Shown here piece by piece: positions 7,337-40,300 of a stretch of 64,000 nucleotides of DNA. A model generated the notes under the pieces. That model ran no database searches. It was not told where the DNA came from and saw only the letters and a list, made by a program, of their open reading frames with translations. Origin of the DNA: a virus. Position 1 is the stretch's first letter. Each line of letters starts with the position of its first letter. Position numbers and translations under genes: made by a program. The DNA lies in the IMG/VR virus record IMGVR_UViG_3300035002_000022, positions 6,192-70,191 of that record; one strand, written 5' to 3'.

Positions 7337-8588
7337 CGCTACTCTCACCATGTCTTTGCTGCGTAGTCCGGTAGGGATGTATGCAGGGTTGGCAATGGTG
7401 GGCGGTGCGTATGGCATCAACCGCAAGCACCAGCTCACAAACGGCGATTATGCTGCTGTTTTGCGTGAACCTGTCAATGGCTTTACCGAAGGCTGGCAGC
7501 ACTTATTCGAGACGTTTGCCTTCAGTCGCAAGGACATTGGTGAAGCTCGCAAGTTAATCCAAGTGCAGAACCTGCAAAAAGAACTCAAGACAAATGTGCA
7601 AGCTTGGGTAGAAGCAGAGTCCATCAAAGGCGAGTGGCTAGGCGATTGCATCCGACGATCGTTGTTGGTCTGCGGTGTGAGTGGCGATGGCAAGACTACC
7701 TTTCTGCTGTGGGTCTTAGCCAAGCACTTTGAGATTGTTGCTGATCTGCATGTCACTATCTGCGACTTGGATTATGGTTCGTCGCATGAGGGCAGTGAGC
7801 CGAATTGGTGGTTTAACCTGCCGCGAGGACGCTATATCCGTGCCAGCTACGAAGAAATCCGTGATTCGATTCTGGCTGAATCGGCAGAAGTCGATCGACG
7901 TGCCAAACTGAGCCAGGATCCAATGCAAGTGCGTAACTTCCAATCCAGGCTCTTAGTGATTGACGAGCTGATTGCAGTGATTGACATTGCGCGGTCAAAA
8001 GGTAAAGACGAGTTTGATCCGTTTATCTCTGCCTTTAAAAATATTCTTAACCGTGGACTCAAACAGCGGGTGAAGGTAATCTGCGGTGTGCAGAATTTGA
8101 CCGTGACCGACACCGGGTTATCACTGGCGGCACAAGACTCGTTTAATACGATCGTCCTTCACACATCAGCCTTGAAAAAAGACCCATTGAAGCGCATGGG
8201 TGTTGAAGATGTAGATGCAATGCTTGAACGCGCTAAGGGCATCACAAGGATCCCAGGCTGCGATCGCATTGGTGTTGTGCGGACTAATCAAGAGATCAAT
8301 ATTCGCATCATGCCGTATCTCAGCGTGGACAGCGTTGAGCTTAAGTTGCCAGAAGACGACACAGACCCGCTTGAAGTTTGGCATCAGCAAGTGTTTACAA
8401 CCGCAAAGTTGGCTGAAATTGAACAGCTGGCTGAGCAGTTTTTAGCAAAAGAGATCAAGAGTCCGTTAAGGCAGATTGCGATCGACTGTGGCTTGAAAGA
8501 ACTCCGCAACGCTGACCCGAAATACCAACGGGTGAAGCAGGTCTGGGAAAGTGCATTACAAAAAGTGGGGGTATTGGTTCATGGTTAG
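7296..8588 (+). CDS. membrane-anchored P-loop ATPase, FtsK/HerA/coupling-protein-like
   Basis: N-terminal hydrophobic hairpin, Walker A GVSGDGKT, Walker B LLVIDE, RGLKQRVKVICGVQ motif. Confidence 0.7.
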   Translation: MNPKAIASLLLLSSATLTMSLLRSPVGMYAGLAMVGGAYGINRKHQLTNGDYAAVLREPVNGFTEGWQHLFETFAFSRKDIGEARKLIQVQNLQKELKTNVQAWVEAESIKGEWLGDCIRRSLLVCGVSGDGKTTFLLWVLAKHFEIVADLHVTICDLDYGSSHEGSEPNWWFNLPRGRYIRASYEEIRDSILAESAEVDRRAKLSQDPMQVRNFQSRLLVIDELIAVIDIARSKGKDEFDPFISAFKNILNRGLKQRVKVICGVQNLTVTDTGLSLAAQDSFNTIVLHTSALKKDPLKRMGVEDVDAMLERAKGITRIPGCDRIGVVRTNQEINIRIMPYLSVDSVELKLPEDDTDPLEVWHQQVFTTAKLAEIEQLAEQFLAKEIKSPLRQIAIDCGLKELRNADPKYQRVKQVWESALQKVGVLVHG

Positions 8589-21927: not shown

Positions 21928-22212
21928 ATGCACCTGACCTATAAAGATGTTTTGCCGATTACGCGCCGTGCCTTTAACTTCACTCAGCGACTGCTCTACG
22001 CTCATTCTCAACCATACAAGGATTGGCTGATCATACCGACAGCCACACCAGAAGGGCGTTTTGCCTTCCGTGTCTTTGACCCCGATGGCATGGATTGGAC
22101 TGATCCGTATGGCGAAAACTACGTTTCGCTTACTGCTGCCCTAGAGATGGGTGAGCACTACATCAACCTGCAACTGGCGGAGTTAGAGGAGTCGTTACGT
22201 GAATCAGACTAA
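21928..22212 (+). CDS. hypothetical protein, cassette A gene 2
   Basis: 58/94 identical to 28458..28742 by manual alignment. Confidence 0.8.
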   Translation: MHLTYKDVLPITRRAFNFTQRLLYAHSQPYKDWLIIPTATPEGRFAFRVFDPDGMDWTDPYGENYVSLTAALEMGEHYINLQLAELEESLRESD

Positions 22213-22963
22213 CCCCTACCAGTTTCCGCAACCGAAGTACAAAGCGGGTCAGCATATCCAGACTGAGTGGCGCACTGATGACACAAAAGAACTGGTGATC
22301 GAACAGGGCGTAATCATTGCGCTGACCTATACCGATTACGAAGCCGATCGGCATCATTACGAATCCGGCTTCACCTACCACGTGCAGTTTTACAAGCCGC
22401 GTGTCTTTGTTGATGACGTACCAGAGAACGATATTGAAATCATTGGAGACATTGCTATGAGCCAATCTACTGCTACATCGCGTCAGTACAAGTTTCCACA
22501 ACCTAAGTTTGAGGAAGGTCAACATGTCCAGACCCCAGGAGGCAATTGCGGCGTGGTGTCTGCCTTTACCTACACGACCGACACAGAAGATTGTCGCCTT
22601 GAGCCTGGTTTCAATTACCGCATTGATTTTTATAAGCCTATTCAGATGAGCGATGTGTCGCACGAAAGCAAGCTCTTTCCACTAGATGAGAGAGGCGCGA
22701 TGGAGCGTTTGATCATTGCCGTACCTGAATCTGTACCAGTGCCTAAGTTTCAACTCTTTGAGGAGGCTTTCTACGGCAAGCACAAAGGGGTGATTGTAGC
22801 GATGGCTTATGAAAATCCGTTTGAAGCGCTGCGGCATAACTCGGAACCCGGTTGGCGTTACGACTTAAGCTATTCGCTCAATCGGACTCCGCTAGAAGCT
22901 GTATCTGTCAGTGAAGATGACACTCTGATCTATGAAGACTCGCTAAGCCGTTGTAGCTGTTAG
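22199..22963 (+). CDS. three-repeat small beta-barrel (SH3/KOW-like) protein, cassette A gene 3
   Basis: Three PKY/PKF..G..I/V...GF/W.Y units; paralogue of 27977..28471. Confidence 0.75.
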   Translation: MNQTNPYQFPQPKYKAGQHIQTEWRTDDTKELVIEQGVIIALTYTDYEADRHHYESGFTYHVQFYKPRVFVDDVPENDIEIIGDIAMSQSTATSRQYKFPQPKFEEGQHVQTPGGNCGVVSAFTYTTDTEDCRLEPGFNYRIDFYKPIQMSDVSHESKLFPLDERGAMERLIIAVPESVPVPKFQLFEEAFYGKHKGVIVAMAYENPFEALRHNSEPGWRYDLSYSLNRTPLEAVSVSEDDTLIYEDSLSRCSC

Positions 22964-23041: not shown

Positions 23042-23575
23042 TTATTTACCCAAATCCGCAAAATCCGGCTCAGCGCAAGACGGACCAACATTAGCGACGA
23101 AAGTTACTGCTGCTGGGTTACCGCTAGCAGGTTTTACTGACTGACAGAGCACGGCTAGAGTGGTAGCTTCCCCTTCTGTCGTGCCAGTCGTGAAGCCGAT
23201 GCCGACACCACCTGTATACGCCCTTAGTGTAGTGGTGAAAAGGGGGTAGGCAACATTAGCGACAGCGGATTCAGAGGCATCTTGGATCGCGTAAGTGTAG
23301 TTAGTCGTCTCGGTTTTGATGCCTAAGCCCAATAACGAAACATCACTAGAGAAAGCGTTGTTTTCCAGAAAGTGAGCCTGTTGAGCACGGTTCATAGAAC
23401 CTGCATAAGTCTTAGCTTCAGACTCTTTCGCTTTGTTTGCCTGGTTCAGGAAAGATGGCAGGGCGATCGCGGAGAGAATGCCGATGATGATGATAACAAC
23501 TAGCAGTTCAATCAAAGTGAAGCCGTCGTCTGACTTTTTGATAGCGTTGATGAGCTTGAATTGAATTGGTTGCAC
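23042..23575 (-). CDS. pilA: type IVa major pilin (cyanobacterial PilA1-like)
   Basis: GTG 23575 after GGAG; leader ..IKKSDDG|FTLIELLVVIIIIGILSAIALPSFLNQANKAKESEAK; E5; two C-terminal Cys. Confidence 0.9.
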   Translation of the reverse strand: MQPIQFKLINAIKKSDDGFTLIELLVVIIIIGILSAIALPSFLNQANKAKESEAKTYAGSMNRAQQAHFLENNAFSSDVSLLGLGIKTETTNYTYAIQDASESAVANVAYPLFTTTLRAYTGGVGIGFTTGTTEGEATTLAVLCQSVKPASGNPAAVTFVANVGPSCAEPDFADLGK

Positions 23576-23606
23576 AAGGAACTCCAGATTGGATTGAGTA
23601 GAACAT

Positions 23607-26600
23607 TTACAAGGCACGACCTGCACCACTGTTGTAGTAGTACGAGAGGTCAACGTTGCCACCCTCAGAAGTTGGCAGGTCTTTGAAGAAACCCGTGTAG
23701 CGCATCCTGCCCCATAAGTTAGCGCCGTCTTCAGAGCGATACCCCAGCGTTAGATTCTGTGCCGTGTCGCCGTGCTGTATGGTGGTAGTTGCCTTATTGA
23801 ATGCGCCTGCATTCACGCTAATGCCAATTTCGTTTGGGGAACCAGGCTTGTAGTAAATGGTGAGAAAATAGAACGTGCTAGAGGTAGCTCCACTAAAATT
23901 ACTAGCCAAAACTGTTTGCGAAGTAGGCGCACCCGTTGCAATGTTATACAAAACATAAACAAACCGTGACCCGTCGAAGTACAAGACGTATTCAAAAATA
24001 GCATTTGAATAATTCGTACCCGGCACAAAACCCTTTTGAAGAATGAAGTAAGCAGTAGTTGAATTTAAATAAGCCCATGTACACCAAGTAAAAGCAGCAT
24101 TGCCTACGGATATGTCGGCAGTATCAGCCCCGGTCAAAGTAGAGTTAGAACCCCCGCTTAGAGTGACATAATCGCCACTTGTAAAAGTTGCGCCTGCACC
24201 AGCATCAAGGTTAGGTGTACCCACAACCGCATTGCCATTACTTGTGAGGTTCCAATAAGCAGAAGGAGAACCAGCAGAAGGAACACTAGCAGCTAGGGTT
24301 GCGGGGGTAGCATTTAACCTGAGCACAGGTGCCACACCCGATCGCGCTACAGATGCATTCCGGCTACCACTCAACGCACTCAACCTGAGTACAGGTGCCA
24401 CACCGGAACGAACCACGGGCAAAGCGTCAAAAGGATATTGAGGATTAGAGACTAGGCTAGTGATTTCGGCGCTACTCAGAACGCGGTTCCACATCGTTAC
24501 GCAGTCAATCCATGTGCCAGCGAAGAAACCTGAGTTGGGCTGATTCAGTAAGAAACGATTACTGCCACCTGTCCGTACAATCAGCGGCTTACCTGTTGCT
24601 GTAACGGTTGTGAAATTAACACTATCAGTTAAGTTTCGGACAGCTAACCCTGCGGTGCCTGTAGGATTATTCCAAATTACTACGAGGTAGGTTTTGTTGA
24701 TGCTGTACGATTCGCTTGTCTCTAGCCCCACATCTTGAGCCGAATCAAATAGCGCTACGTCTCCGTTGCCAGTCGTAGACGCATACTGGAAGGTGATTTT
24801 AGTGCCATTAAAGACAACCTGCATTTGAGTGGCACCAGAGCTTGTGTTGTAGTAGCACAACGGAATATAAGTGTAGCTAGAGCTTTGCGGTCTGAAAACA
24901 AAGGCTTGCGTAAACGATTTGTCGTCAATCCGCAGCGCTGTGCCAGTAGCAATGCTGATTTGCAGGAAAGAACCATAGACACCAGAACCAGCAGTGTCGC
25001 TACTGGTAAAGGCTTGACCGTTATAGCCAGTGACATAGGTAGGTGTTGCTGTTTGTAGGCTGCCAGCATTTTGATCAAAGTAGCGACAGATCCAATTATT
25101 CGTACTAATTGCATCATTGAGGCTGTTGTCAAGCTTCCAGGCACCGATCGCGCCTGTAGCCAGAGAGCTGCCGCCAATCACTCCGACACCTGAACCACTC
25201 AAGGCAGAAAGCCTGAGTACAGGAGCTACGCCCGATCGCGTAATTGTTGTAGCAGCTTTGCCACTAGGGGCAAACAAGCGAATGATCGGTGCCACACCAG
25301 AACGACTGATCAACGAACCGAACGAGCCAGAGATACTACTGAGTTGCAGGACTGGCGCTACACCTGATCGCATCACTGTAGGCACATAGGGCAGCACTGG
25401 CACAGTAGCGTTAGCGGGGATGGTTGCCAGCCAGATTAACTCACACCCCACAGTGGCGCGAGTGCGATCGTGCGAGAAGCTCAGCCCGTCAACTTGATAA
25501 ACAATCGTGTCATACACCTTTGACCAAACACCACTGCTAAACACAAAGCGCGGTTCTCTGACGTGGATGACCGGGTAAGGGTTTTCATTGGTCAACCATT
25601 CGTCAGTCAGCCCTAGCAGGATTTGCGCTCCTTGTCTGCGTCCGACGAGATCCTCACCTATTTCTTGAGCGATCGCGCTTGCTTGCTCATTGCTGATCAT
25701 CCAGGGGATTGAGATAAAGCGGCGACGGTCTTGCTGATTGGAACCTGCAAAGCTGCCAAATAACGCCACGCCGTCTAGCTGTCGTTCATTGCGTCCGTAG
25801 CGCTGTGGTCGCCGTTCAGCAGCAGGAGGGTTGTTTTGCCCACTGCCGCTCACCGTAGAAATTGGATTGGTTGTAGTGAGTCTGATTTTCTCGCTGACCG
25901 TTGCCGTATCAGGCACAGCATCAGGAAAGACATCAATCAGCGGTGCGGCTGGCGCTTGTGTGTACTCCCATTGCCCCGGTCTGATTTCGCGGTACGTCTG
26001 GATTTCACTCGCAGCAGGGACTTGGAAAATCACGCCTGCTGTCAATGGATTCACGTCAGGCAGAACGCTTGCCAGCATGCGGCTAGTGCGGCTTTCAATC
26101 TCGTCTACTACTTCTTTGGGCGTGTAGTGGTAGTAGGTGATCGTGCGAGTATCGATCGACGGACTAAAAGCCGCGTAATTTGCCTTCTGAGCAGTGCTTA
26201 AGCCACTCCAAAATTCGCTGGCTGCTACTCGAAACGGACGCACGATCGTTGTCTCGTCTTGCAGCAACTTCCCATTGCCGCAGACATTAACCTCGTAAGT
26301 CTTGATATTAGTCGTGCGGCGACTGAAGATGAGCGAATCATCACCTGGCGAATCGTCAGGTGCTAATAAGCCACGAGGCTCAAGTTCCTCGACTTCATGC
26401 AGGATTTGCGTTGCGTCCTGTGCGTCTCTAGTGCAGGTAATCCGAGTGACAAGATTAGAGCCAGGGGCATAAGTGATTTTGCAAACGGTTGTGTCTTGCC
26501 AGGTATCCGTGATGTCGTAGGTTGAGCCTTGCACGCGAATTTCTTCGCATGGCGTTTCTTGCCCAGCGACAGGCATATACTCAGCCTCGTCTTCTCCGAT

Positions 26601-27320
26601 CGTCACTGTTAGCAACGGCGTAGCATTGACATCAGCACGATAGTCTACAGCGGTGAGATTGCCAGCAGGCGATCGCTTCTGCACCAGCGAGTAAAACCGG
26701 GCATAGGCAACCTCTCCTGCAACCGCTAAATAGCTGCCACTGTCATTAGAAACAGGGTAATAGAAAGGATAGTTTTCGATTGAGCCTTCCCATGTGCCCT
26801 GTACGCCTGCTTTTACTAGTAGCTTACGGACTACTTCACCAGGGCTTTGCACAATGCCAACATTGCTGAGAGTTGGATCTTCAGGGTCACACGCTAGCAA
26901 AGGGTTAGGGTTGGGTGCTGCATAATCTTTTAGCTTCAACCAGCAACCAACTTCTAGCGTAATGCGTGCATCTTGGGGTTGCGGTGATTTTGGCGGTAAA
27001 GGCTCCTTAAGGATGAAGAGTTCACTGAAGCGATGGTCAATCCATGCCCCGCTGCTATTTAAGACCTGTACACGAAAAAACTGCCCGCGACTCCATAAAG
27101 CACGGGGAATGATGCCGCCCCCAATGTCATAGTTAAGCCTGGGGTTAAGCAGCGCTACATTGTTGTCTAATGCTGTCAATACTAATGTGCCGCTGATTTT
27201 GGCTAAGCCACCGCGATCGCGCTTGTCAAAGCCTGCTGCTAAGGTGACAAAGGCTTCATCAAACAGGATCTCATCCGGTCCTACTAAGATTCTAGTTTTA
27301 ACAGCAGTAGCGTTTACCAT
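23607..27320 (-). CDS. tail hub/receptor-binding protein with two C-terminal LamG (concanavalin-like) domains
   Basis: Follows a Dit-like gene; GAWKLDNSLND..IDCVTMWNRVLSSAEI and AYWNL..MRYTGFF LamG patterns. Confidence 0.7.
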   Translation of the reverse strand: MVNATAVKTRILVGPDEILFDEAFVTLAAGFDKRDRGGLAKISGTLVLTALDNNVALLNPRLNYDIGGGIIPRALWSRGQFFRVQVLNSSGAWIDHRFSELFILKEPLPPKSPQPQDARITLEVGCWLKLKDYAAPNPNPLLACDPEDPTLSNVGIVQSPGEVVRKLLVKAGVQGTWEGSIENYPFYYPVSNDSGSYLAVAGEVAYARFYSLVQKRSPAGNLTAVDYRADVNATPLLTVTIGEDEAEYMPVAGQETPCEEIRVQGSTYDITDTWQDTTVCKITYAPGSNLVTRITCTRDAQDATQILHEVEELEPRGLLAPDDSPGDDSLIFSRRTTNIKTYEVNVCGNGKLLQDETTIVRPFRVAASEFWSGLSTAQKANYAAFSPSIDTRTITYYHYTPKEVVDEIESRTSRMLASVLPDVNPLTAGVIFQVPAASEIQTYREIRPGQWEYTQAPAAPLIDVFPDAVPDTATVSEKIRLTTTNPISTVSGSGQNNPPAAERRPQRYGRNERQLDGVALFGSFAGSNQQDRRRFISIPWMISNEQASAIAQEIGEDLVGRRQGAQILLGLTDEWLTNENPYPVIHVREPRFVFSSGVWSKVYDTIVYQVDGLSFSHDRTRATVGCELIWLATIPANATVPVLPYVPTVMRSGVAPVLQLSSISGSFGSLISRSGVAPIIRLFAPSGKAATTITRSGVAPVLRLSALSGSGVGVIGGSSLATGAIGAWKLDNSLNDAISTNNWICRYFDQNAGSLQTATPTYVTGYNGQAFTSSDTAGSGVYGSFLQISIATGTALRIDDKSFTQAFVFRPQSSSYTYIPLCYYNTSSGATQMQVVFNGTKITFQYASTTGNGDVALFDSAQDVGLETSESYSINKTYLVVIWNNPTGTAGLAVRNLTDSVNFTTVTATGKPLIVRTGGSNRFLLNQPNSGFFAGTWIDCVTMWNRVLSSAEITSLVSNPQYPFDALPVVRSGVAPVLRLSALSGSRNASVARSGVAPVLRLNATPATLAASVPSAGSPSAYWNLTSNGNAVVGTPNLDAGAGATFTSGDYVTLSGGSNSTLTGADTADISVGNAAFTWCTWAYLNSTTAYFILQKGFVPGTNYSNAIFEYVLYFDGSRFVYVLYNIATGAPTSQTVLASNFSGATSSTFYFLTIYYKPGSPNEIGISVNAGAFNKATTTIQHGDTAQNLTLGYRSEDGANLWGRMRYTGFFKDLPTSEGGNVDLSYYYNSGAGRAL
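24318..25370 (-). repeat. five 27-bp RSGVAPVLR repeats (66-bp period) interrupted by a LamG domain
   Basis: Copies at 25344, 25278, 25212, 24384, 24318. Confidence 0.85.
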
Positions 27321-27826
27321 TACGCAGGCACGACCTTATACTCTTCAAACGCTAAGTCAATGATGACTTTCCCACCTTCCTGTGCAAAAGTAGGTTGCTT
27401 AGAGAACCACACATCAAACTGTGCGAAATACTCAGTTAGTCCATAAGTATTTGTGGTCACAGTATTAAAGGGAGACGGCGCTACAGCACGGGTACGGGTG
27501 CCCAGTTCATTAAAGCTTTGATACGCATCAATGAGCCTGATTTGTGCTGCCTGTTTTTTCACAAACAAATCGTTGTGAATGTCATACATTGCTTGCACAA
27601 CGGGCTGAAGCGCGATCGGTGCTAATACTTTCAACGTCCACACATGAGGTTCTGGCAGGAAACCGCCATATTTCACAGGGGTATTGTAGGCACTGCGTTC
27701 AATCCCCGGCGCTTCTGCCCTCACCCGTGGGAAGCTGTCCTGTTTCGCAAAAATAACTTCCCCAGATCCGGCGTAAATTGGCATGGTGATGCCTGCAATA
27801 CTAAATGATATGTAATTGATCGCCAT
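27320..27826 (-). CDS. distal tail (Dit/gpM-like) protein
   Basis: 168 aa; ERSAYNTPVKYG..PHVWTL; lies between the tape measure region and the hub; TAATG coupling. Confidence 0.55.
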   Translation of the reverse strand: MAINYISFSIAGITMPIYAGSGEVIFAKQDSFPRVRAEAPGIERSAYNTPVKYGGFLPEPHVWTLKVLAPIALQPVVQAMYDIHNDLFVKKQAAQIRLIDAYQSFNELGTRTRAVAPSPFNTVTTNTYGLTEYFAQFDVWFSKQPTFAQEGGKVIIDLAFEEYKVVPA

Positions 27827-27926
27827 TAGATATTCGCGTTAACAGGCAGTTTGGAACAAAACTCAGTATGAGTCTATTATGCCCTTCGATCCTGAAACTG
27901 CTTGCTCTGCTTACGATTAGCAAAAT

Positions 27927-27951
27927 GCCCGTAGATCATTGATCTACGGGC
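27927..27951. terminator. hairpin terminator of cassette B
   Basis: GCCCGTAGATC-att-GATCTACGGGC; similar stem to 22988-23017. Confidence 0.65.
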
Positions 27952-27976
27952 TAAAGGCTTCTCAACAAAACCAATC

Positions 27977-28471
27977 CTAGCAGCCGCACCGACTCAGCGA
28001 ATCCTCAAAAATCAGCGTGTCATCTTCACTGACAGAAACAGCTTCCAACGGTGTGCATCCGAAGGAAAAGCTTAAGTCATAGCGCCATCCGGTCTGTGAG
28101 TCCTGCCGTAGTGATTCATAGGGATTTTCATACGCCATCCCCACGATCGTACCCTTGTACTTGCCATAATATGCCTCCTCAAACAATTGGAATTTAGGGG
28201 TAGGCACAGAAGTAGGGATGGCAATAATCAAGCGCTCCATGACACCTCCTTTATCCAATGGGAAAACTCTGCTCTCGTGCAGCACATCGCTGATCTGATG
28301 CGGCTTGTAGAAATCAATGTGGTAATTGAAGCCTGGATCAAGCCGACAATCATCCGTTTTAGTTGTGTAGGTGAAAGCGGCAATGATGCCACACTCACCC
28401 GATGATGATTGGATGTGCTGCCCTTCTTCGTATTTGGGTTGTGGGAATTGGTAAAGGTTAGTCTGATTCAC
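27977..28471 (-). CDS. two-repeat beta-barrel protein, cassette B gene 3
   Basis: Aligns to repeats 2-3 of 22199..22963. Confidence 0.75.
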   Translation of the reverse strand: MNQTNLYQFPQPKYEEGQHIQSSSGECGIIAAFTYTTKTDDCRLDPGFNYHIDFYKPHQISDVLHESRVFPLDKGGVMERLIIAIPTSVPTPKFQLFEEAYYGKYKGTIVGMAYENPYESLRQDSQTGWRYDLSFSFGCTPLEAVSVSEDDTLIFEDSLSRCGC

Positions 28472-28742
28472 GTACCATCTCCTCTAAATCAGCCAAATGG
28501 ACGTTGACCCAGTGTTGCGCCATTACTAAGGCAGCTTCAGCAGAGCAGTACGTTTCGCCGTACATATCCTCGTGCCGATCGCCATCGGGATCGAACACCA
28601 CAAAAGCGAAACGACCATCAGGCGTGACGGTAGGGACGATTAGCCAATCCTGATAAGTCTCAGCGTGGCTATAGAGCAGGCGTTGCGTCAGGTTGAAACC
28701 AAAGCGGGTGATTTCGGATAAGTCTTCGTAAAGTAAGTGCAT
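28458..28742 (-). CDS. hypothetical protein, cassette B gene 2
   Basis: Paralogue of 21928..22212; same 14-bp overlap with the next gene. Confidence 0.8.
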   Translation of the reverse strand: MHLLYEDLSEITRFGFNLTQRLLYSHAETYQDWLIVPTVTPDGRFAFVVFDPDGDRHEDMYGETYCSAEAALVMAQHWVNVHLADLEEMVRESD

Positions 28743-28813
28743 CGTTCTAAGTCCTTCTAAAAGTGCAGTGGGTAAGGAAGGGGCTAGGTGCCCCTGTTGC
28801 AGCAGGTAGAGGA
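28743..28813 (-). ncRNA. structured intergenic RNA motif, copy B
   Basis: TCCTCTA/TAGAAGGA, TGCA/TGCA, inner AGGGGC/GCCCCT. Confidence 0.6.
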
Positions 28814-29044
28814 TTAGAACCGTGCAGCGTGACCTCTGCGCCAGCCATTCATGTAGTCAGCGTTGCTGTAAAGCGAACCACGTAAACCCAGGTTGTTAAA
28901 CCCATCGCGAAAGCCAGCACTTTCCATTTCATCAGGCGATATCTGACGGGCACGGACAAGAGCAAGATTAAGACTCGGATCAGAGGAGCCGTAGAGAATG
29001 GTTGCGGTTTCTACGGTCTTGGAAGGGGTGATTGCTTGAGGCAT
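28814..29044 (-). CDS. hypothetical protein, cassette B gene 1
   Basis: 76 aa; not visibly similar to cassette A gene 1. Confidence 0.55.
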   Translation of the reverse strand: MPQAITPSKTVETATILYGSSDPSLNLALVRARQISPDEMESAGFRDGFNNLGLRGSLYSNADYMNGWRRGHAARF

Positions 29045-29121
29045 AATAATGAAGTCTGCTAATAAGTGGACTGAGTGGGAGGGCGGTTAACTTTGGTCGG
29101 TGAGCCGCCTTTCCTTTGTCC

Positions 29122-29150
29122 ACTATATCTATTTCTATGCAGATAGTCAA
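29122..29150 (-). promoter_or_regulatory. sigma70-type promoter of cassette B
   Basis: TTGACT-17 bp-TATAGT. Confidence 0.65.
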
Positions 29151-29247
29151 CTATTTATAAATGGGTATATGCTTAATTACATAAGGGTTCAAAACCTTTG
29201 TATCAACCTGTTAACTGGAGGTGTGTAGAAAGATGAGAGTCATTTTC

Positions 29248-29520
29248 ATGCGAAAAGAGATCCTTCAGGATCGACTAAAGCAATTAGGGTGGACGCGGTA
29301 TCGTCTCACTCAAGAATATTGCCGTGTCCGTGGTGAGCCTACTACGGCAGACTCTGTAAAGCGCTATGAGGGGACTGTTAAAAGAGCGCTAGAAAATCCT
29401 AACCGCTCAAGCACTGAAGTTATTGAGGCGTTGGTTAAAGCGCTCGACGGTGAGCAAGTAATTAAGTGGAACAATCGGGAAGAGATTGTCACTGGTCAGG
29501 AAGAGGTCAAAGTTGGCTAA
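29248..29520 (+). CDS. HTH-like regulator divergent from cassette B
   Basis: LQDRLKQLGWTRYRLTQEY...STEVIEALVKALDG resembles XRE. Confidence 0.6.
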   Translation: MRKEILQDRLKQLGWTRYRLTQEYCRVRGEPTTADSVKRYEGTVKRALENPNRSSTEVIEALVKALDGEQVIKWNNREEIVTGQEEVKVG

Positions 29521-29594
29521 TAAACACCCTAGTATTTAGGGTGTTAAACCAAAAATAAAGACTAATAGATTAATAAAATTCAACCAGCGGTAAA

Positions 29595-30548
29595 ATGACT
29601 GACTTTGACACGGCTAAATTCTTTGTGGGAGATCTATGCCCTCACAATCATTTTTGGCAAGGTGAACCGCGATCGTTGCGTTACACAAAAGATCGTGGCT
29701 GCGTTGAGTGCAAGAAAGCTTATCACCAGCGCAACAAAGAACGCATCCTAGCCAAAAAGTCTGAATACCACAGAGAAAACATTGATAGCAGGAAGGCTTA
29801 CAATAAGCAATACATTGACAAGAACCTAGAGAGGATAAAGGCTCAACAAAAAGAGTATCGTTTAGCGAACAAAGATAAAATTACAGCTAGAAGCATTGAA
29901 TACAGGAGAAAAAATAGAGAAAGAAAGCTTGAATACATGCGTCGATATTACGCATTGAACAAAGACAGAATAAATGAATACAGCAGAGCGTATCATCATC
30001 GAAACGCTGACAGAAACAACGCCTATAAAAAAGCTTGGCATAGAGCAAATAGGCAGCATGTTTTAGATCAGAAAAAACTGGATCGAAAGCTGAATCCACA
30101 GAAGTATAAAGAAAAAGACCGGGAAAGGTATTCCAAGCACAGAGAGACTTGTCTAGCTAGAAATAAAGCTTATCGGCAGACAGAAAGGGGAAGACTGGTA
30201 CGAAGGCAACTTGAAAGAAAGAGAGAGGCGGTCAAGAAGGGCAACCATAGCGCCAAATACATCCCTGAACAACTATTGTCGCTTCGTCAAGAGTTCGGCA
30301 ATTTATGCGCTTATTGTCAATCGGGCGGAGCCAAAACTATGGATCACTTCATACCAGTCAGCAAGGGCGGATCTGATGTTTTAAGCAATTTACTCCCTTG
30401 TTGCTGGTCGTGCAACAGCAGCAAGCAGGATAAAGACCCAAAAGAATGGTATTTTAGTCAGTCGTTTTCTCAGAAAAAGCGGTGGGCTAAAATTCTAAAA
30501 GTGCTAGGAAAGACGGATAGCAACTACTTGGTACTGCCTTTGTTGTGA
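29595..30548 (+). CDS. HNH endonuclease with a basic repetitive helical region
   Basis: CAYC..TMDHFIPVSKGGSDVLSNLLPCCWSCNSSK. Confidence 0.9.
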   Translation: MTDFDTAKFFVGDLCPHNHFWQGEPRSLRYTKDRGCVECKKAYHQRNKERILAKKSEYHRENIDSRKAYNKQYIDKNLERIKAQQKEYRLANKDKITARSIEYRRKNRERKLEYMRRYYALNKDRINEYSRAYHHRNADRNNAYKKAWHRANRQHVLDQKKLDRKLNPQKYKEKDRERYSKHRETCLARNKAYRQTERGRLVRRQLERKREAVKKGNHSAKYIPEQLLSLRQEFGNLCAYCQSGGAKTMDHFIPVSKGGSDVLSNLLPCCWSCNSSKQDKDPKEWYFSQSFSQKKRWAKILKVLGKTDSNYLVLPLL

Positions 30549-30582
30549 CTTGTAAATAGCATGGTAGATGATTTCTCTAGCG

Positions 30583-31230
30583 CTATTTCTTGGTGTAGTA
30601 CATTGCCGCAAAGACAACCCCTAAAATGATTAGAATTATTCCTGCTGGAGGGAACACAAGAAGCATTAAAACGCCAAGCCCACCAAAGATAAATCCCATC
30701 CGGTTGTACTGATCTGCCTGTTGGGTGGATCCCTGTTTTTTGAGGTCTGAACTAAGTTCTGCCAAGTCTTTGACATACATCCATTGATCAAGGGTTGGGT
30801 TATAAATATAGTCGCTTGGCTTAACACTGCCATCCCTAAGCCATTGTCGCAGCGTTTCAATGTCAGGCACTTCTATTTCTTTATCGCTCTGCTTGACCCT
30901 GAAAACCTTTAGCTGGCTCACTTCTGAGACTTGTATCCGCGCTAACTCCACCCGATCGCTCCACGCTGGCACATCCTCACCCGTTAGCTTGCCGTAGACA
31001 ACAAGACTACTTACGTTTGCTACTCCTAACCCTTGCACTCCTTTGACAATAAAAGGGACGATCGCTCTCTGCTCAGGCACCGTCGCTCCTTCAACCATGA
31101 CGTGCAAATAGCCATCGGCAAGTCTAACTTTAGCGACGAGTTGTTGGGGCTTGAGCGATCGGTTAATCAATGCTGCTATAGCTTGCGGGTTGCCTTGTCT
31201 GGCAGCAGTTAGCACTTCCTGTGGGGTCAT
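30583..31230 (-). CDS. membrane protein: cyanobacterial N-domain + GYF_2-like domain + C-terminal TMs
   Basis: ARQGNPQAIAALINRSL..; LRQWLRDGSVKPSDYIY..QW; hydrophobic end. Confidence 0.65.
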   Translation of the reverse strand: MTPQEVLTAARQGNPQAIAALINRSLKPQQLVAKVRLADGYLHVMVEGATVPEQRAIVPFIVKGVQGLGVANVSSLVVYGKLTGEDVPAWSDRVELARIQVSEVSQLKVFRVKQSDKEIEVPDIETLRQWLRDGSVKPSDYIYNPTLDQWMYVKDLAELSSDLKKQGSTQQADQYNRMGFIFGGLGVLMLLVFPPAGIILIILGVVFAAMYYTKK

Positions 31231-31356
31231 AACTAAGTTTGTGGAGGATGTTTAAACCATTCCTCTACCTTAGAGAAAATCCGCACGAGGACAATAAAGA
31301 TTTTGCAAAGGTAGCATTAGAGGTTAACAACAATGCCGCTAACCTCTGGAAGTACG

Positions 31357-34300
31357 TCAAATGTTGGCATTGGAAACTTGTTGGGCAGAAATGTCTGAGT
31401 AAATCTTGGCTGCATCATTCACGGGTGACGGACTAGAAACTGTGAGATTCGGTCTACCCATTGCTGAACTGATGACATTAATTAACTGATCGAGCTTGCT
31501 AGAGACATCACCGCCTCCAGAACCACCCACAGCACCGCCGCCGAGTGATGGTATAGGTTTGTCTGCCAGTCCGCTGCTACCCAGTGGTGGCGCGTTGTTC
31601 ATGCCTGCACCAATGACAGTTGGACGGAATGATGTATCAGCGATCCCATTGCCAGCGATCGCGGGTCTAATAGCCGTATCAAGTTGACCGTTGCCTGCGA
31701 TCGTCGGTCTGATCGCGGTGTCTGCCATGCCGTTACCGGAAATCGTCGGTCTAATGGCAGTATCGATCGCGGCGTTGCTCATCTCTTGAGCAGGTTTCTT
31801 GATGCCCGACGCTGTGACTCCAATCAGCGTGATGAGAGCGCCTAGCCCTGCCAGTAACTGACCAATCCCGTCCGCTGAGCCACTACCGGACGGTGCAAAC
31901 GCTTCAGCCCCACGTTCGCCCACTAAGTACGGCTGCCCAGCGTTGACGGGTCCACCTGTGGCGCGGGCTTGAATTGCCTGCTTTGCCCCTTGCATATTCT
32001 GTCCGCTCAGTATCGTGGCAGTCTTAGAAGCGTCGATAATCTCGCCTGACACTTTTGGAATAAAGAGTTCCTGACCTTTTTCACCAACGACATAGGGTTT
32101 GCCTGCCTGAACGTCGCCGCCTTTGGCGCGACCGGGAATACTACCTTGCATTCCTGATTTGATAAGCTGCTCAATGAATGAAACGTCATTATTAGCGCGT
32201 CGATTCTGATCTTGCCCTTCAAATTGTTCTCTTGCCGTCTCTTGGTTTAACGCCAGAACTTGACGGCTATTTTGCGCCATTTCTTTTTGATTTGCCAAGC
32301 CTTCCAGCGCTGTCTGAATTTGAATGTCAGCCACCTTAGACATATTGTTGGCGATCGCAAGCGACATTTGAGCGATCGCCATCCCCTCTTTATCACCTGA
32401 CTTGATCGCTGTGGAATAGTCTTTAACTGCTTGGAGCTTGGCACGATCGGCATCGAGTTTATATCGCTGCCCCTCAATCACCAGTAACTTTGCTGCTATT
32501 TCTTGCTTGCGGATATCAAACTCAAGCGATTTTTTAGAAAGCTCAGCCTCTTTCTCGCGGGCACCTCTTTGCTTATCAGCAATGCTGTCTTCAATCTTCT
32601 GCCGAGCCAGTAGAATTTCGTAGGATTTTGAGTTGGCATTAACGCCACTAGCGCCAGACTCGTTTAACTGCTTGCCGATCAGTGCTTTTAGGCGCGGATC
32701 CATCTTCGGATCGCTTTCCACTCGATCTTGCAAACCGACGAGTCGATCGATTTTGTTTAGCTGCGTCGTGTCACGGGCGATCGCTAAGTCAGATTGAGCC
32801 TTTGCTAACGCCCCCTGACTCTCAAGTAATTGCTTGGAGCGATCGAGCTGATCCGTCTCTAATTTGGCAACAGCTTCCAGTGACTTGATACGTGAGTCTC
32901 GTAACTGCTGCTGCATCTGCACCTGACGCTGTGCTTGAGCCAGTTGAATATCGGCTGTTTCTTTATTTAGCCTTTGCTCTTCTAGAATGCCTTCTTTCCG
33001 TGACCTGCTACCCTCTGCCACTAACGCTTTGTTGTCCTCTATGGCTTTGCGGTTGAGCGCTAGAGTCGCTACAGAAGTGCCCTGCTCAATCAGTGTTTGC
33101 GATCGCCCTGCTTGAGCTTGAGAGAATTCGCCAGCGTCGGGGCTGTTAAGGAGATTACCTTGTAAAGCCGTAGTTTGCTGAGTTTGAGCGAGGGCGATCG
33201 CGGCGGCAGCGCTTTGATTGAGAAAATTAATCTGCTCAATCTTTTGCCTGGTCGTTGCTTCAATTTTCTTCGCGTATGATTCCTCAAGCGATGCCGCTGC
33301 CTCTGTCCCTCTTGCTCTTGCTTCAGTAAGCTTGTCCCCTAGTGCTAGTTCATCATCATGAAACTTTTTAGCGTTGATGCGGCGCTCCTGGTAAAGCTGC
33401 TTATTGCGCTGCATCTCTCGCTCAACGTTGACAATGGCTTGACCCGCAAGGTCTTTTTGAGTTTTAGCTTGACTGATGCCCAAATCTGCATCGGCTACAC
33501 CCGCTTCGGCATCGCTAAAGAAAACATTCTTCGCCTTCTGCATAGTCAGCTTTGCCCTTTGGGTGGCAAAATCCGCATTAGCCAGCGCTTGCCGTCTACT
33601 CAATGCGCTAGCTTCAGCCGCAGTGACTTTCTGAATCTGCTCAATGCGCTTGCGGTTAATGGCTTCAATACGTTTGCCCTTGGCTTCCTCGATTTGGGCT
33701 TCGGCTTCAGCACTTTTCGCCCTCGCCTGTGCCACCTGAGTAATTAAGTCACGCTCCTGATTCTTGAAGTCAATCTGATCAATTTTCCCTGCCTTGTAGT
33801 CTTCACGTAGTCGGCTCAAGGCAGCGCCAGAGTTAGCCAGCCCAGCCCCTGCACTTTGTTGTTGTGATTGGGCTTGGCTCAGTCCTAAATCTGCTTCTGC
33901 TACGCCTGCATCAGCGTCAGAGTAATATTGATTGCGCGATTTTTTAACGTTGATTGCTGACTGGTCTTTTCTCAGTTGAGTATTCCGGGTTAACTCAACC
34001 CGCGTAGCATAGGCAGCATCATTTGCATCTGATCTCTGTCTGAGATTAGCGGCTAACTGTCGTTCGGTTTGCTGCTGCTGTAGTTTGGACTGGTCAACCT
34101 GTAGTTGCTGTGCTGGTAACTGGTCTTGTAGATCTTTGAACTCTGCTGTAGACTCGATAGCTTTTTTAAGCTGTGGATTAGACGCTTGCCCTGCTTTCAG
34201 CTTTAATTCTGCTGCGCCCGCATTCGGATCAATACCAGCAGCTTTGAGCGTACTTGTAGCATCGATCGATTGCAAATACTGTTGTTTCTTCGCAAGCTCA

Positions 34301-37300
34301 TCTTGGCTAGCGCCAAGCTTTTGCTCTACCCCTTGCGTGTCAAGTTGCGCTGTTTTTTGCTGCGCCTGTTCTGAATTCAAACCACCAGTTAATTGTTGTT
34401 TTAGTACATCCGATTTACTGCCTGACACTGATGCATCGATCGCTTTTTGTGCGTCTTGGGCTTTAGCGGTGGCAAGATTCCATTTATCAGCAAAATTAGC
34501 GGCTAAAACTGCCGCCTCAGACAGTTTGCGGTTGTACTGTGTTTGGACGCTTTGAGCCTTTTCCAGTAGTTTGATCGTAGCTTCGTATTCTTCTGTGGGT
34601 AAGCCTAGTTCTTTAGCTTGTTTGACAGACTCTCTAAAATTCTTCAGCGCCGAGTCAATTTGGGCTGATTGCTCCAAAATGGGTGAAGCTTGCTTGTCTC
34701 GCTGCTCTGATAATGCTTGCCGCTGCTGGCGCAACACTTCTAGCTGATTCTTGTCAGCATTGGGCTGCATCTGTAATTTTTGGCGTTGCATGTCGATCGC
34801 TTTCATTTGATCGTCAAGCGCTTTTACTTTGGCGATTTGAGCATTCATGCCACTAGCGTCAAAGGCTTTAGCAGCCACGTCCTGAGCAGCTAACGCTTGA
34901 TCACCTAAAGATACTTGCTGATCGAACTGTTTTGATTCTGCCAGCGTGGTCATTCGCCCTAGACCAGTAAGCCCCATCTTTTCAACTAAGTTGTTGCGAA
35001 TTTTAATCGCATCATCTGTTTTGAACGACTTACCGAACATCCCACCCAATCCAAGCGTTAAGTCAAAGCCTTGCGAAGGCAAATCTTTTTTGTCGTTACC
35101 GATCCCAGCGACTTCACCTCTAGCGGCTTTTGCCGCTTCCTCTATGCGCTTCAGCCCGCTAACTGCCTCGTCTGTAAACTTGTTAAACTGTTTGGTGTTT
35201 TCATCAGGGGTGAACTGCCGCATCAGAGACTGCACAGACTCGATCGCGGCTGAAAAAAGCAGAAATTTAGCCGCGATCATGACTGATTGTTCAATCATTC
35301 GGGCTGTTGTGGCATTAAAGATTACGCCAAGTGACGCAACAGCCGTGCTACCAGTGATCGCCGCTGTTGCCATTCCAGTCAGTCGGACAATCAGATTGCC
35401 GCCAATATAAGCAGCAGTTATAGCAATGATTGATCCCAACTTTTCCATCGCTCCTGCCAGTAAATCGACAGCAATCGTAGCAGTATCTAATCCCGCTTTT
35501 TGAGCTGGCTGAATAACCAAACCAAAAGCTTCCTGAGCACGTTGATTGGCAGCATTGAAGCGATTTTCGGAAGATTGGACATTTTGAGAAGCTGTTTTTG
35601 CAGAAGCACCATAAGCAATCTGTAGCTGTCGCCCAAATTTAGGGATAAATTCTTCTGCTGATAACTGACCTGATTCAGTAAGTTTTGCTAATTCTTTTTC
35701 AGTGATCCCCATAGCGTCAGCAGCCGTTTTCATCACGCCTGTCAAGCCTGCGTCTCCTAGCTGTCCTTTTAATTCCTCCATCTGGACGGAACCCTTAGAA
35801 GCCATGTCACTTAGCGCTTTCATGACTTGCGCCGTTTGTTCGCTAGTTAGCCCTAAAACTGTTGCAGCTTGAGAAACACCCGTAATTGTTTCTTTGACAG
35901 CAAAACCTTCTGCCGCTGTGCCCTTGGTTGAAGCTGCCAGATTCTTGAAACCCTGCCTAGTTGATTCAAGTGGGATGCCTAAATCATCAACAGTCTTGTC
36001 GACAAACTTAAAGTCTACTCCTGCCTGTGCAGCGCTACCACTGGCAAAATCTAGCGCTGTCTTGAAATTATTCAAATTACGGGCGGCAACCAAAGATTGA
36101 TCAACGATTGGCTTGAAAATATTGACAGCGGCTATGGTTAGACCAATTGCTCCTACGCCTTTCACAATCAATCCAAAATTACCAAGAATGCCTTTGACAG
36201 CCCTATCAGCAAACCCTGGCAACTTGGACAAAATACCTGGAATCGTATCGATTGCAGACTCAACAATCTTTGGTATAAAAATACCTAGTTGCTGCAACCC
36301 TTGTTTAAATGATTCAACGTAGCTAACGGCATTCTCTAAAGCCTCAGCCTTCAGGCTGCCTGTTGCTTGAGGCGATCGCGCTACTGACACCTGACTACCA
36401 AGACCGCCGAGTGCTGATTCTTTGAGCGCTCCAAACGCATTACCGATCGCGCCTAGTGGATTACCAATGGCGTTACCAACCGACTGTTTCGCCTGAAGTG
36501 CTTTGACAAAGAAGTCAACCATCCGCTGATTCGGCTGCGCTTCCTGGATAGGCTGTGGCAGCGCTTCACCACTACGCACGCGAGTCGCAACATTGCTGAA
36601 GACTTTCGGTGCTTGCGTCTCAAACGCATAAGCGTCAGCTTCGGTCCGGGCGATCGTGCGTTGGAAATTCTGAGGCAGCAATCCGCCTGCCTGCTGATTG
36701 GCTACTTGAGCCGATCGCATGGCGTTGTACTGCATCGATCGCGGTAGCTCCTGGATCGGTGCCAAGGCTACGCCAGGTTGAGCAAAGCCTAGCGATTGCT
36801 TAGCAATGCTGGAACGCCCAAAGTCAAACTGGAAGGCATGACGGGATTCGTGGACAACATCCTTAATTGCTTCTTGCTGTTTCTCAATCTGATCCACCGT
36901 GCCGCTGAGCATCGCAGCGACTTCTTTGGTGATGATGATCTGATTATTTTTGATGTTGTACAGTGCCCTAGCACCAATGGCTTGCAGCTTGGCATCATCG
37001 ACTACCAGTTTAGGCAAATCACCGGGCTTGATTGTGACCTTAGAAAGTTTTGCCGCTTCCTGTACTAGCAATTGATAGGTTTGATCAGTCGTTAACTTAA
37101 GCTGTTGAGGCAGACGTTCTACTTGCTTCTGCGCTTCTCTTGCTGCTGCCTGCACCTTGGCAGCCATTGAAGGTGGTTGTGCAACGGGCGTAGGCTCTTT
37201 GATATAACGTTCTTCTAGAGCATCCATTGTCTTATTCAGACCTGACGCGATCGCTGCTTTAGCTTTCTCAGTGTCAGCTTTCGCTCGGTTGATCAAACCG

Positions 37301-40300
37301 CCTAACAACCCTTGCTTGGGCTGATCGCCAACTCGTGCTAATTCTGCAACGTCAGGTTCTAAAACTCGCTCTCTAGCATTCACAATACGAGGCACCGTAG
37401 CCATTGCCACAGCAGCACCTTTGAGCGGTATTTTGCCTAGCAGTCCTGCACCGGGCACAACACCATTCAGCGCTGATAGCCCAGCATTAGCCGCCATTGC
37501 TGAAACATTGCCAATGGCAAAACCAGTCAAGTCGCCTGTGAGGTTTGCGCCCATTTCTTTCTGGAACGCCGCACCACGCATCCCGTTTAGCGCTGCTCGT
37601 GCAATCTCCTTAAACTGCCTACCAGTACTAGACTGATAAGCCTTGAACACTTCAGCCGATGCTGCGATCGCCTGACGCGCTACCAATGCCCCGACCAAAT
37701 CGCCTGCAAGACCAGGGACAACGCCAAAGTTATTGCCTAGCTGAGAAGCGGCAAACCCAGCCGTATTCACTGCTAAATCAGTAGCGATCGCTTTTGCTTT
37801 GGGTGTACGCGCCGTCTGCGCCAAATTGCCACGAATGGAACCAACAGGTTCAGCATTAAAGGATTTTGCTAAAGCGCCTGTAGCGTCTCTCAGTGTTTCT
37901 CTAGGCGATCTTGCTAGCCCTTCAACATCGGCTGCGTTAAAGTTGGTTCGCAGTGACTCTAAGCGTCCGCGCGTCCTGCCTGCTTGCAAGCGAGTATCAG
38001 GAGACTGCGAAGCGCGTAGCTTTTCAAGCTCTGCTAAGGTGGCATTGATTTCATTGTTTGCTGCTGCGGCAATCTCTTCACGACGCTTGCCTTGGGCATC
38101 AACAAAAATACGTAGCGAATCATTGATGCGTTTCTCGGCGTCTTTAGTAGCCGCGATCGCCTTTTTCTCTTCAGCCGACTGCGGCAATTTTTTGATCGAC
38201 TGCCCACCCTTCGGACCCGTTTGCACCAAAGGCGCGATCGCATCAAACGCTTCACGCACGGACCGGGCATCGGCTTCTAGTAATTCTTTGACTAGCCTGT
38301 CTTTTGTACCTTTGCCAGCACCACCAGAAAGACTGGAGACTTCCTTGAGTATTTCGGTGTTATAGCCACTAATGATCGAGCGATCGAGCGGTTTCGTTTG
38401 CAGTGGTTGCGCCATCTGTGGGGGAGGGATGGCAGCCGCTTCTACGATCGCCTGCTCACGCTGTCTTGCTTTGAGTGCGGGTGCCGCTTGCTGCTGCGTG
38501 CCGAACGCCTGATACAGCATTGTTTCAGCTTCAGCCAGTTGCTCATCATAGCCAGCAAGTGTCTGATCAAGATTGCCCGTGGCTTGCTCCATCAGCAATT
38601 GCAGCTTTTCACGGTTGATCTTAATTTTGGCAATGACCGTTTTATAGAGTCCTGTTTTCAGGTAAAAGTCAGAACCTTGCATTGCTGCCATGAAATCATT
38701 GGCTGCCGCCTCCATGTCCTGCTCAACCGACTTCATCTCAAACGCCACAGCCGATTTTAATTCGGCAGGAATCTGGCGCTTGATATTGAGTTGCTTGAGG
38801 ATTGCCCCTTGCGTGTCATCAGCACTGAGGTAGCTCGATAGTTTATGCCCCTTACCACCCTCAGCATGAATCTGAGCATCCTTTGCGCCTGACAACCTAG
38901 CGATCTTAGATAATGGGTCACCTTCACCTAAAACCGTTTGAAACTGTTCTTTCGTAGTGCTGGCAGTGCTGCTAAAGCGCGGTGTACCAATACCAACGGC
39001 GCGAACATTATCAACGTTTGCCGCATTGAGTACTTCAGAGGATTCTCTAGCAGTAAAGCCACCTGCTGAATAACCCGCAATGCCGATCGGTAAGTCTGGA
39101 TTTTCCCGACGCACCGCGATCGCCTGCGCTGCTGCCTCAATAGCATCTTTGCTAACTACGAGGTTTTGCATGACGATCTTGTTGATCGCTTCAGCAAAGA
39201 ATCTGAGCTTACCTTCACCCAAATTCACTGATAAATCAGTAGCCTGGTTTTCAACAGGGATAACGGGATTCCGCTCACCCGTCAGCAGTTGCAAGCGTTC
39301 AGCGACAGGAATACTGCTTTTACCTCGTTGCGCCTTATCTTCATTGCCAGCAAAGCCACCAATCCCAAACACTACAGAATCAGCATTGTCGTATTTTGGT
39401 GCTTCAATTTGTTCTGATCTTGCCTGCGCTGTTTTGGCTGCTTCCTTAACTAAGCGCTGCCGCCTGTCTTCAATACCTTCCAGCGGTGTAGCAGCAATAT
39501 CGGCAACCGCTCCAGCAATACCCTGGAGATTGCCGACCTGGACACCCACCCCTTTAAGCCGCAGCAGGTCGTCAATGAGTTTGCCGATCTGGGTTTCAAG
39601 AACACTGAATTTGCGATCGAGCGTTTTGGTATCAATGATTTCATTGAGGAACTCAGTGGCTTGCGCTACTTTAGGCTTTAGCCCTGCCAGACCTTCTTCA
39701 ATGCCTAACCGTTTGACAAAGCGATCGCCTGCAAACTTGCCAGCCTTGCCAAACCCAGCACTAAATTTCTCGCCTAGTTTATCTAGTGATGTGCCTAGCT
39801 CAGCTTCGATATTCTTGATAGAGCCTTCTGTAAACTTGCGGGCATAGGTAGCACCTACGCCTTCCTGAAAGCCTCGAATCGTGTTTTGTAGCCCACCTGT
39901 AATCGGTGCAAACAAACCCGATCGTGCCTGTGCTTTCTTCGTGCCTTCAGTAACTGCCTTAGTTAAATCCTCTTCTAATCCTTTAGTGTCTAGCTCAACC
40001 TTGCGGCTAGTATTTGATGGCGTGTCAGCACTGACTGTGACCTGTAGTGATCGCTCTAGCCGTGCCCTGACTTGCTCAACATTGCTACTGTTGATTGTTA
40101 GCGTAGCTCTCAGGTCAAGCGTGGTAGAAGTAGTCTGACTGATTTCGTGGGCTACCTGTAAGCGATCGACCTTGACACCGATGGCAATTGTAGGCTTTTG
40201 ACTTTCAGTTTGTCTGATCTGATTTTGTAAAACCTTGGCATCAAAAGTAGGAGCAACTTTTAGCGATCGCTCCAAGTCTTTACCCATTGCCGCAGTCTGG

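Follow-up and report, generated by a model that had tools for sequence, protein, structure and literature searches.

The viral record IMGVR_UViG_3300035002_000022 of IMG/VR carries a tail gene, here called P0001, in which a baseplate hub domain is followed by short repeat units and two lectin-like domains. The gene lies within the stretch of 64,000 nucleotides (nt) analysed here, which covers positions 6,192 to 70,191 of the record and is referred to below as the window. According to the list of open reading frames (ORFs) and the translation, P0001 occupies 23607-27320 on the minus strand, encodes 1237 amino acids (aa) and is present in one copy in the genome; the segment 23607-25370 is its 3′ part. 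An earlier note on this DNA had described, in that segment, five RSGVAPVLR units with a 66-bp period, an 828-bp gap holding a first laminin G-like domain (LamG-1) between units 3 and 4, and a second one (LamG-2) past unit 5. A direct-repeat search and the translation confirm this architecture. Start-to-start distances are 66, 828 and 66 bp (the 828 bp being such a distance), and five units with the core RSGVAPV(L/I)xL are found at aa 651, 673, 695, 971 and 993. Each unit measures 66 bp or 22 residues and consists of a 10-residue core and a variable spacer. A DNA pattern of three cores had a single match in the window, whereas 100 shuffles gave none. The parts of the gene are as follows.

23607..27320, minus strand: whole P0001 gene; tail hub, repeat stalk and two lectin-like domains; 1237 aa
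25371..27320, minus strand: N-terminal domain, aa 1-650; predicted gp27-like baseplate hub fold with large insertions
25305..25370, minus strand: repeat unit 1, aa 651-672; starts immediately past the hub domain
25239..25304, minus strand: repeat unit 2, aa 673-694
25194..25238, minus strand: first part of repeat unit 3 (core and beginning of the spacer), aa 695-709; shares homology with unit 3 of the alleles L010, P0002 and P0153 (see below)
24429..25193, minus strand: LamG-1 segment, aa 710-964; Gly/Ser-rich linker and Laminin_G_3 domain, within the unit-3 spacer
24411..24428, minus strand: unit-3 tail remnant DALPVV, aa 965-970; corresponds to DYTLPVI, SYSLPVA and EYSLPVI where LamG-1 is absent
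24345..24410, minus strand: repeat unit 4, aa 971-992; 79% nt identity to unit 4 of L010
24279..24344, minus strand: repeat unit 5, aa 993-1014; end-domain swaps start in or just past its 10-residue core
23610..24278, minus strand: LamG-2, aa 1015-1237; end domain with a predicted concanavalin-A-like jelly-roll fold

By repeat spacing, the full unit 3 would be positioned at 25173-25238.

Hub fold and lectin-like domains

The hub domain was modelled as a monomer with AlphaFold2 (AF2) from an alignment of 88 homologues. The mean predicted local distance difference test (pLDDT) score is 87.6, with most of aa 1-650 above 90. Foldseek matched the model with probability 1.0 to Mu gp44, the phage Milano hub, the N-terminal halves of VgrG proteins, T4 gp27 and the hub of cyanophage A-1(L), and VIA-align superimposed model residues 5-644 on gp27-type hubs with Z scores of 20-22 over ~320 aligned residues. 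The values reached 22.0 for 8fqc_C1 (root-mean-square deviation 3.8 Å, 320 aligned residues), 21.1 for Mu (9ki1_G) and 18.4 for T4 gp27 (1k28_D), with siphophage tip proteins matching at lower Z. At the sequence level, the hub domain gave no match in Pfam, PHROGs, NCBIfam or a PDB sequence search, and the whole protein gave none in a tblastn search of phage records, a PDB sequence search, PHROGs or NCBIfam. In L010, a related contig of 107.6 kb from IMG/VR, the order of the genes is tape measure, a gene of 168 aa and hub. Because of the hub fold and of this gene order, the model identifies P0001 as the central hub of the tail tip, with a C-terminal part predicted to exit at the distal end. Since aa 1-650 are predicted to fold as a hub of the gp27/Mu gp44/VgrG type, the lectin-like domains would be located at the tail tip, and the gp27-like domain leads to the expectation of a trimer.

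The sole Pfam match of P0001 is Laminin_G_3 (PF13385), scoring 29.9 bits against a cut-off of 27.6, with a best stretch at aa 796-953 that corresponds to LamG-1. The AF2 model of LamG-2 (pLDDT ~85) is a concanavalin-A-like jelly roll. Foldseek matched it with probability 1.0 to lectin-like jelly rolls, among them subdomains of solved proteins and the tailspike of cyanopodophage Pan3 (9vyh_p); these matches concern the fold only, sequence identity being 11-16%. LamG-1 and LamG-2 have no sequence similarity detectable by BLASTP (E 1.1), and an origin of the pair by recent tandem duplication is thereby ruled out. Within the hub family described below, the sole relative of LamG-1 is the C-terminal domain of P0019 (30% identity, E 1e-15), which is terminal in its protein and ends at the same NPQYPF motif. 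In view of the fold and of the tail-tip position, both lectin-like domains probably bind a glycan or a protein of the host surface. In solved LG/LNS domains the ends of the jelly roll are close together, so that an inserted LamG domain would fit.

Domain exchange and gene context

Four close alleles were compared, with N-terminal domains 83-85% identical; breakpoints were placed at the nt level for the window versus L010 only, and P0002 and P0153 were compared as protein. The window allele reads units 1-3, LamG-1, units 4-5 and LamG-2. LamG-1 is not present in the three other alleles, where five tandem units precede a different Laminin_G_3 domain (P0002, 992 aa, from a Logan assembly), a LamG-2 homologue with 57% identity (L010) or an unrelated domain of ~300 aa (P0153, a JGI fragment). 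All four alleles have exactly five orthologous units, and no gain or loss of a unit was seen. At the nt level, unit 3 of the window is 81% and unit 4 79% identical to the corresponding units of L010; these units being orthologous, the five-unit array is common to both. Homology between the window and L010 stops after the ...LSALSG of unit 3 (window 25194) and resumes at DALPVV, which places LamG-1 inside the unit-3 spacer, with the core and the tail of the unit kept.

For P0153 and L010, identity is 100% over at least 176 hub residues and up to and including the unit-1 core. It drops to ~85% in the units, and beyond the RSGV of unit 5 the two sequences are unrelated. Judged from these alignments, the end-domain swap between them is very recent, with junctions in the unit array. 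LamG-2 itself appears to be a module that moves without the RSGVAPVLRL units, since a homologue with 64% identity is found on a different carrier, P0152 (372 aa, from an ENA metagenome), where it follows a He_PIG/PKD Ig-like domain and 4-5 AGSYWRD repeats of ~18 residues each. P0152 is also a second, unrelated carrier in which short repeats come before an end domain. In L010, at least three frame changes occur within ~450 nt (positions 7770-8215), with unit lengths of 67, 65, 66, 65 and 66; they are probably assembly errors, because P0153 is residue-identical there and intact, a decaying copy being possible.

The same organization extends to a large family. A HMMER scan of 1.84 billion representative sequences yielded 239 hub homologues of 590-1461 aa. 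When the tail measures at least 30 residues (118 homologues), two or more short units follow immediately after the hub domain in 111 cases. The number of units ranges from 2 to 12, and their spacing is regular, with a mode of 24 residues for the first and of 18 for the later ones, where 19-22 are also common. Cores are near-identical within one protein and lineage-specific between proteins (GGIRVGG, GGLRLGG, GGMRMGG, RGFGFGR, VGKGKG, GVGFGGW and others), the RSGVAPVLRL core being limited to the small clade of the window. Within this clade, the residue at core position 5 is Thr in each of the five units of P0002, whereas every unit of P0001 and L010 has Ala there; so does P0153 in four of its five units, the divergent unit 5 having Gly. 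This Ala/Thr pattern points to units that evolve in step, as far as the aligned cores can tell.

Beyond the last unit, fewer than 60 residues remain in 44 proteins, while a domain of at least 130 residues is present in 56. An all-versus-all comparison of 74 tails gave 33 end-domain classes, and 45 end-domain changes (minimum 32) were counted on a tree of 70 hubs, where sister hubs differ and one class recurs in distant clades; this tree was built with FastTree and has several long branches, so that only its broad pattern is reliable. Apart from one doubtful case, P0049, no family member has a clear domain between units. The tail of P0049 comprises seven GxDTAxGT units, a stretch of ~195 residues and two weak unit-like matches; a second domain within a repeat array is possible there, and the late matches may be due to chance. 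The view of the lectin domains as repeat-bounded modules, put forward in the earlier note together with a comparison of homologues for domain turnover, is thus borne out by the alleles without LamG-1, by the three different end domains and by the turnover across the 70 hubs. The opposite outcome, homologues that keep the same domains and breakpoints that lie off the repeats, was looked for and does not hold, since the allele junctions fall in the unit array. The search for related loci was extended to genome contigs, where no relative was found. In metagenome, viral and genome collections, a degenerate three-core pattern matched at least 290 loci, none of which, among the matches listed, encodes a relative; the pattern is unspecific.

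As to the genes around the hub, the immediate upstream neighbour is the following.

27320..27826, minus strand: 168-aa gene upstream of the hub gene; ends at 27320, where the hub start codon begins; conserved tail-operon partner

Its product, for which no family match was found, is encoded by a gene 83% identical to its L010 counterpart. The gene order of the window is that of L010, except that the tape-measure gene and the 168-aa gene, direct neighbours in L010, are separated by additional genes spanning ~3.5 kb (window 27827-31356, against 5260-5489 in L010). One of these genes is on the opposite strand, and the block as a whole resembles an insertion into the operon of tail genes. Directly 3′ of the hub gene lies a type IV pilin-like gene (Pilin_GH and N_methyl; 23042-23662, minus strand). 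No pilin homologue was found in L010 within 6 kb downstream of the hub gene; the two elements therefore cease to be similar at the hub stop codon. The 168-aa, hub and pilin genes are flanked by inverted repeats of ~640 nt (22102-22963 and 27977-28568), 72-73% complementary, a divergence that makes inversion in the present day unlikely.

The repeat units as DNA and as protein

Although the cores of P0001 are nearly the same peptide, their DNA has diverged. Over the ten codons of the core, the ten pairs of units differ by 59 synonymous and 12 non-synonymous changes, and codon pairs for the same residue use the identical codon in only 33% of cases. Units 3 and 4, for example, share 16 identical residues, nine of which are encoded by different codons, including switches between the TCN and AGY codons of serine. 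As DNA, the cores are 53-87% identical within the gene, and exact matches between units reach 14 nt at most. Because of this synonymous divergence, of the codon mismatches and of the 14-nt maximum, the core peptide is evidently kept by selection and is not the product of recent duplication or gene conversion.

The earlier note had also drawn attention to the cores of the highly iterated palindrome 1 (HIP1), seen in three repeats, and to a possible part for them in recombination. The window contains 63 HIP1 sites, in agreement with a cyanobacterial host, but the full octamer GCGATCGC is absent from 23607-25370, the three copies of the gene being all in the N-terminal hub domain. The shorter CGATCG or TGATCG is found in four units rather than three (plus-strand positions 25365, 25283, 25233 and 24339). 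The CGATCG of units 3 and 5 and the CGATCA of unit 1 encode the Arg-Ser of the motif, and CGATCG (CGA-TCG) is the commonest codon pair for this dipeptide in the long ORFs of the element (18 of 52). The density of CGATCG is 1.7 per kb in 23607-25370, against 3.6 per kb in the window. A role for HIP1, attractive as it is, is thus unsupported. That the LamG interiors lack CGATCG stands for LamG-2, which has none, and not quite for LamG-1, where one copy (25145) lies near the start of the segment. The longest and the third-longest GATC-free stretches of the window coincide with the two LamG domains. When these domains were recoded with the codon usage of the element, only 1.8 and 3.3 GATC and 0.02 and 0.18 CGATCG were expected; a count of HIP1 per domain is therefore uninformative as to origin, since amino-acid content accounts for the scarcity, and the GATC- and HIP1-free interiors are rejected as a mark of recent foreign origin. 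Elsewhere in the window, a tape-measure-like ORF of 3007 aa (31357-40380, minus strand) contains 35 CGATCG, where its protein sequence and codon usage predict 5.3, and host enrichment of the HIP1 type therefore reaches prophage structural genes.

The units probably constitute a structural stalk on the hub that tolerates fusions and insertions, and the clustering of junctions would reflect the survival of functional in-frame products. In such a stalk, the chain would leave the distal end of the hub as a short series of 22-residue units. These would fold once the oligomer has assembled and not before, probably into a beta structure that is stacked or intertwined. The stalk would serve as a general adaptor, distal domains being fused past the last core, while a domain with close-lying ends could plug into a spacer loop and leave the stalk unbroken. 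In P0001, a LamG domain of a normally terminal type would have been inserted in frame into the unit-3 spacer, LamG-1 forming a side decoration and LamG-2, an unrelated LamG-type domain, the tip. Turnover would proceed via rare recombination between diverged alleles or via illegitimate joins, and junctions would gather in the stalk since in-frame chimeras stay functional there, not because its DNA is an efficient site of recombination. More tentatively, the repeats may represent an undescribed, self-matching type of stalk after gp27-type hubs, in which like cores are required for stacking or for a common partner and which offers a universal socket for domains. If so, cores evolve in step without homogenization of their DNA (as the Ala and Thr alleles and the scrambled codons would illustrate), and a self-matching stalk accounts for changes of receptor-binding domains in a large, mostly uncultured phage family.

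A different mechanism had been advanced in the earlier note, namely that the 66-bp repeats are substrates of homologous recombination, aided by the HIP1 core, through which lectin domains are frequently deleted, duplicated or swapped without a dedicated recombinase. The position of the module junctions of natural alleles in the repeat array would agree with it, as would the presence of CGATCG or TGATCG in four of the five units, yet this mechanism is very unlikely in view of the low DNA identity of the cores, the 14-nt limit on matches within the gene, the five orthologous units kept in all four alleles and the HIP1 data above. Moreover, the junctions of LamG-1 lie in spacer, not in cores, and have no mutual homology. 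A number of findings nevertheless weigh against the stalk as proposed here. Between alleles, exact matches of cores extend up to 20 nt, which is borderline for crossover, and the P0153/L010 junction is inside the unit-5 core; homology-assisted exchange at cores between co-infecting relatives is therefore possible. In both monomer models, AF2 leaves the units without structure (pLDDT 31-39), and they could be disordered; the modelled monomers fit a fold acquired only in the trimer and fit disorder equally well. LamG-1 is itself modelled with a pLDDT of ~25-40. Finally, the N-terminal domains are near equidistant (85.3, 83.2 and 82.9% identity), so that a gain of LamG-1 is only modestly favoured. 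As for a monomeric beta-solenoid, which was also considered for the units, AF2 gives no support (pLDDT <40).

The lack of predicted structure also bears on the possibility that the units are a flexible tether in which every core serves as a docking peptide for one copy of a separately encoded virion protein (for example a fibre, the 168-aa product or the pilin-like product), so that lineage-specific cores track a co-evolving partner. Cores that are the same within a protein, wholly different between lineages and shifted in step (Ala to Thr in P0002) would be accounted for, and the 44 of 103 family members with units and no distal domain would need another protein for host binding. This tether is nonetheless unlikely: the regular spacing (24, then 18-22 residues) and the alternation of Gly or small residues with hydrophobic ones in the cores look like beta strands, no candidate partner was found, and gene content is not known to change in parallel with the number of units (2 to 12). 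Equally improbable is that the two-LamG form is ancestral in the small clade and that its relatives lost LamG-1 by deletion. The near three-way tie of the N-terminal domains leaves room for it, one loss being enough on a tree that joins P0002 and the L010/P0153 lineage as sisters, but the window and P0002 form the closest pair by a slight margin (85.3%), and two losses would then be needed. The internal position of LamG-1 looks derived, since its only relative, in P0019, is terminal and ends at NPQYPF, and no other family member has a clear domain between units, P0049 being doubtful. We therefore infer that the LamG-1 event was an insertion into the stalk rather than a loss.

Comparison with known tail-tip systems

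A known structure that follows a hub is the triple beta-helix of gp5C and VgrG, a trimeric structure built from eight-residue repeats of the VxGxxxxx type. Like that spike, the units of P0001 follow directly on the last hub strand (aa 651), but their period is 22 residues (18-24 in the family) instead of eight. Another parallel is provided by the Dit and Tal proteins of lactococcal siphophages, in which carbohydrate-binding modules are inserted or appended as extra host-binding sites. These lectin-like additions at the tail tip resemble those of P0001, whereas the carrier family differs, and to our knowledge no repeat stalk has been described for Dit or Tal.

The relationship to gp27-type hubs and Tal proteins (T4 gp27, Mu gp44, VgrG, 'evolved' VgrG and gp15 of A-1(L)) is one of common fold (Z 18-22), common place at the tail tip and a common tendency to bear added or inserted domains. 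The hub gp15 of the Anabaena myophage A-1(L), for instance, carries lysozyme, endoglucanase and peptidase domains (PMC10966104). P0001 departs from these hubs by ~300 residues of insertions in the hub domain and by the lack of any Pfam, PHROG or NCBIfam match for that domain; beyond the hub domain come units of 18-24 residues whose cores are lineage-specific, and not an oligonucleotide/oligosaccharide-binding (OB) fold of the gp5 type with eight-residue beta-helix repeats.

Two adhesin systems share the arrangement of repeats and variable parts. In the gp38/gp37 adhesins of T-even phages, conserved glycine-rich motifs, together with His boxes, separate hypervariable segments (Trojet et al. 2011, PMC3157838). 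The likeness is that short conserved motifs build a structural core and flank the parts that vary in specificity, just as the module junctions of the natural alleles (P0002, P0153, L010 and P0152) are at motifs. The T-even segments are short loops within one domain, with motifs conserved across phages in sequence and in DNA, whereas the P0001 family exchanges whole domains of 220-300 residues and has cores that are lineage-specific and synonymously diverged within the gene. As sites of crossover, the units of P0001 have insufficient DNA identity within the gene (at most 14 nt) and a borderline one between alleles (at most 20 nt). In the antireceptors of Streptococcus thermophilus phages, collagen-like repeats separate domains and the host-range region VR2 (Duplessis and Moineau 2001, cited in PMC5601072), and the variable region clusters by host and not by phage group (PMC5601072). 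In both systems, repeats part distinct domains of a host-specificity protein of the tail tip; the collagen repeats are GXY triplets of known trimeric fold with highly repetitive DNA, while the P0001 units have a period of 22 residues and DNA that is not repetitive.

Against this background, phage tail tips that exchange receptor-binding modules, hubs with extra domains, exchangeable segments flanked by motifs and domains separated by repeats are already known. What is new is the family of the carrier, a probable stalk that recurs throughout it, with conserved spacing and with cores that are specific to each lineage and would change in step, and one clear domain plugged into that stalk. The rule that emerges for the family (a hub, 2-12 short units, then either no further domain, with fewer than 60 residues, or one of at least 33 domain classes) offers a simple annotation of host-range determinants in cyanobacterial prophages and metagenomic phages. 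The four alleles, with one inserted domain and three different end domains, form a natural series that maps tolerated in-frame exchange. Finally, the units of P0001 would remain peptide-identical under selection while their DNA drifts, which separates structural need from recombination.

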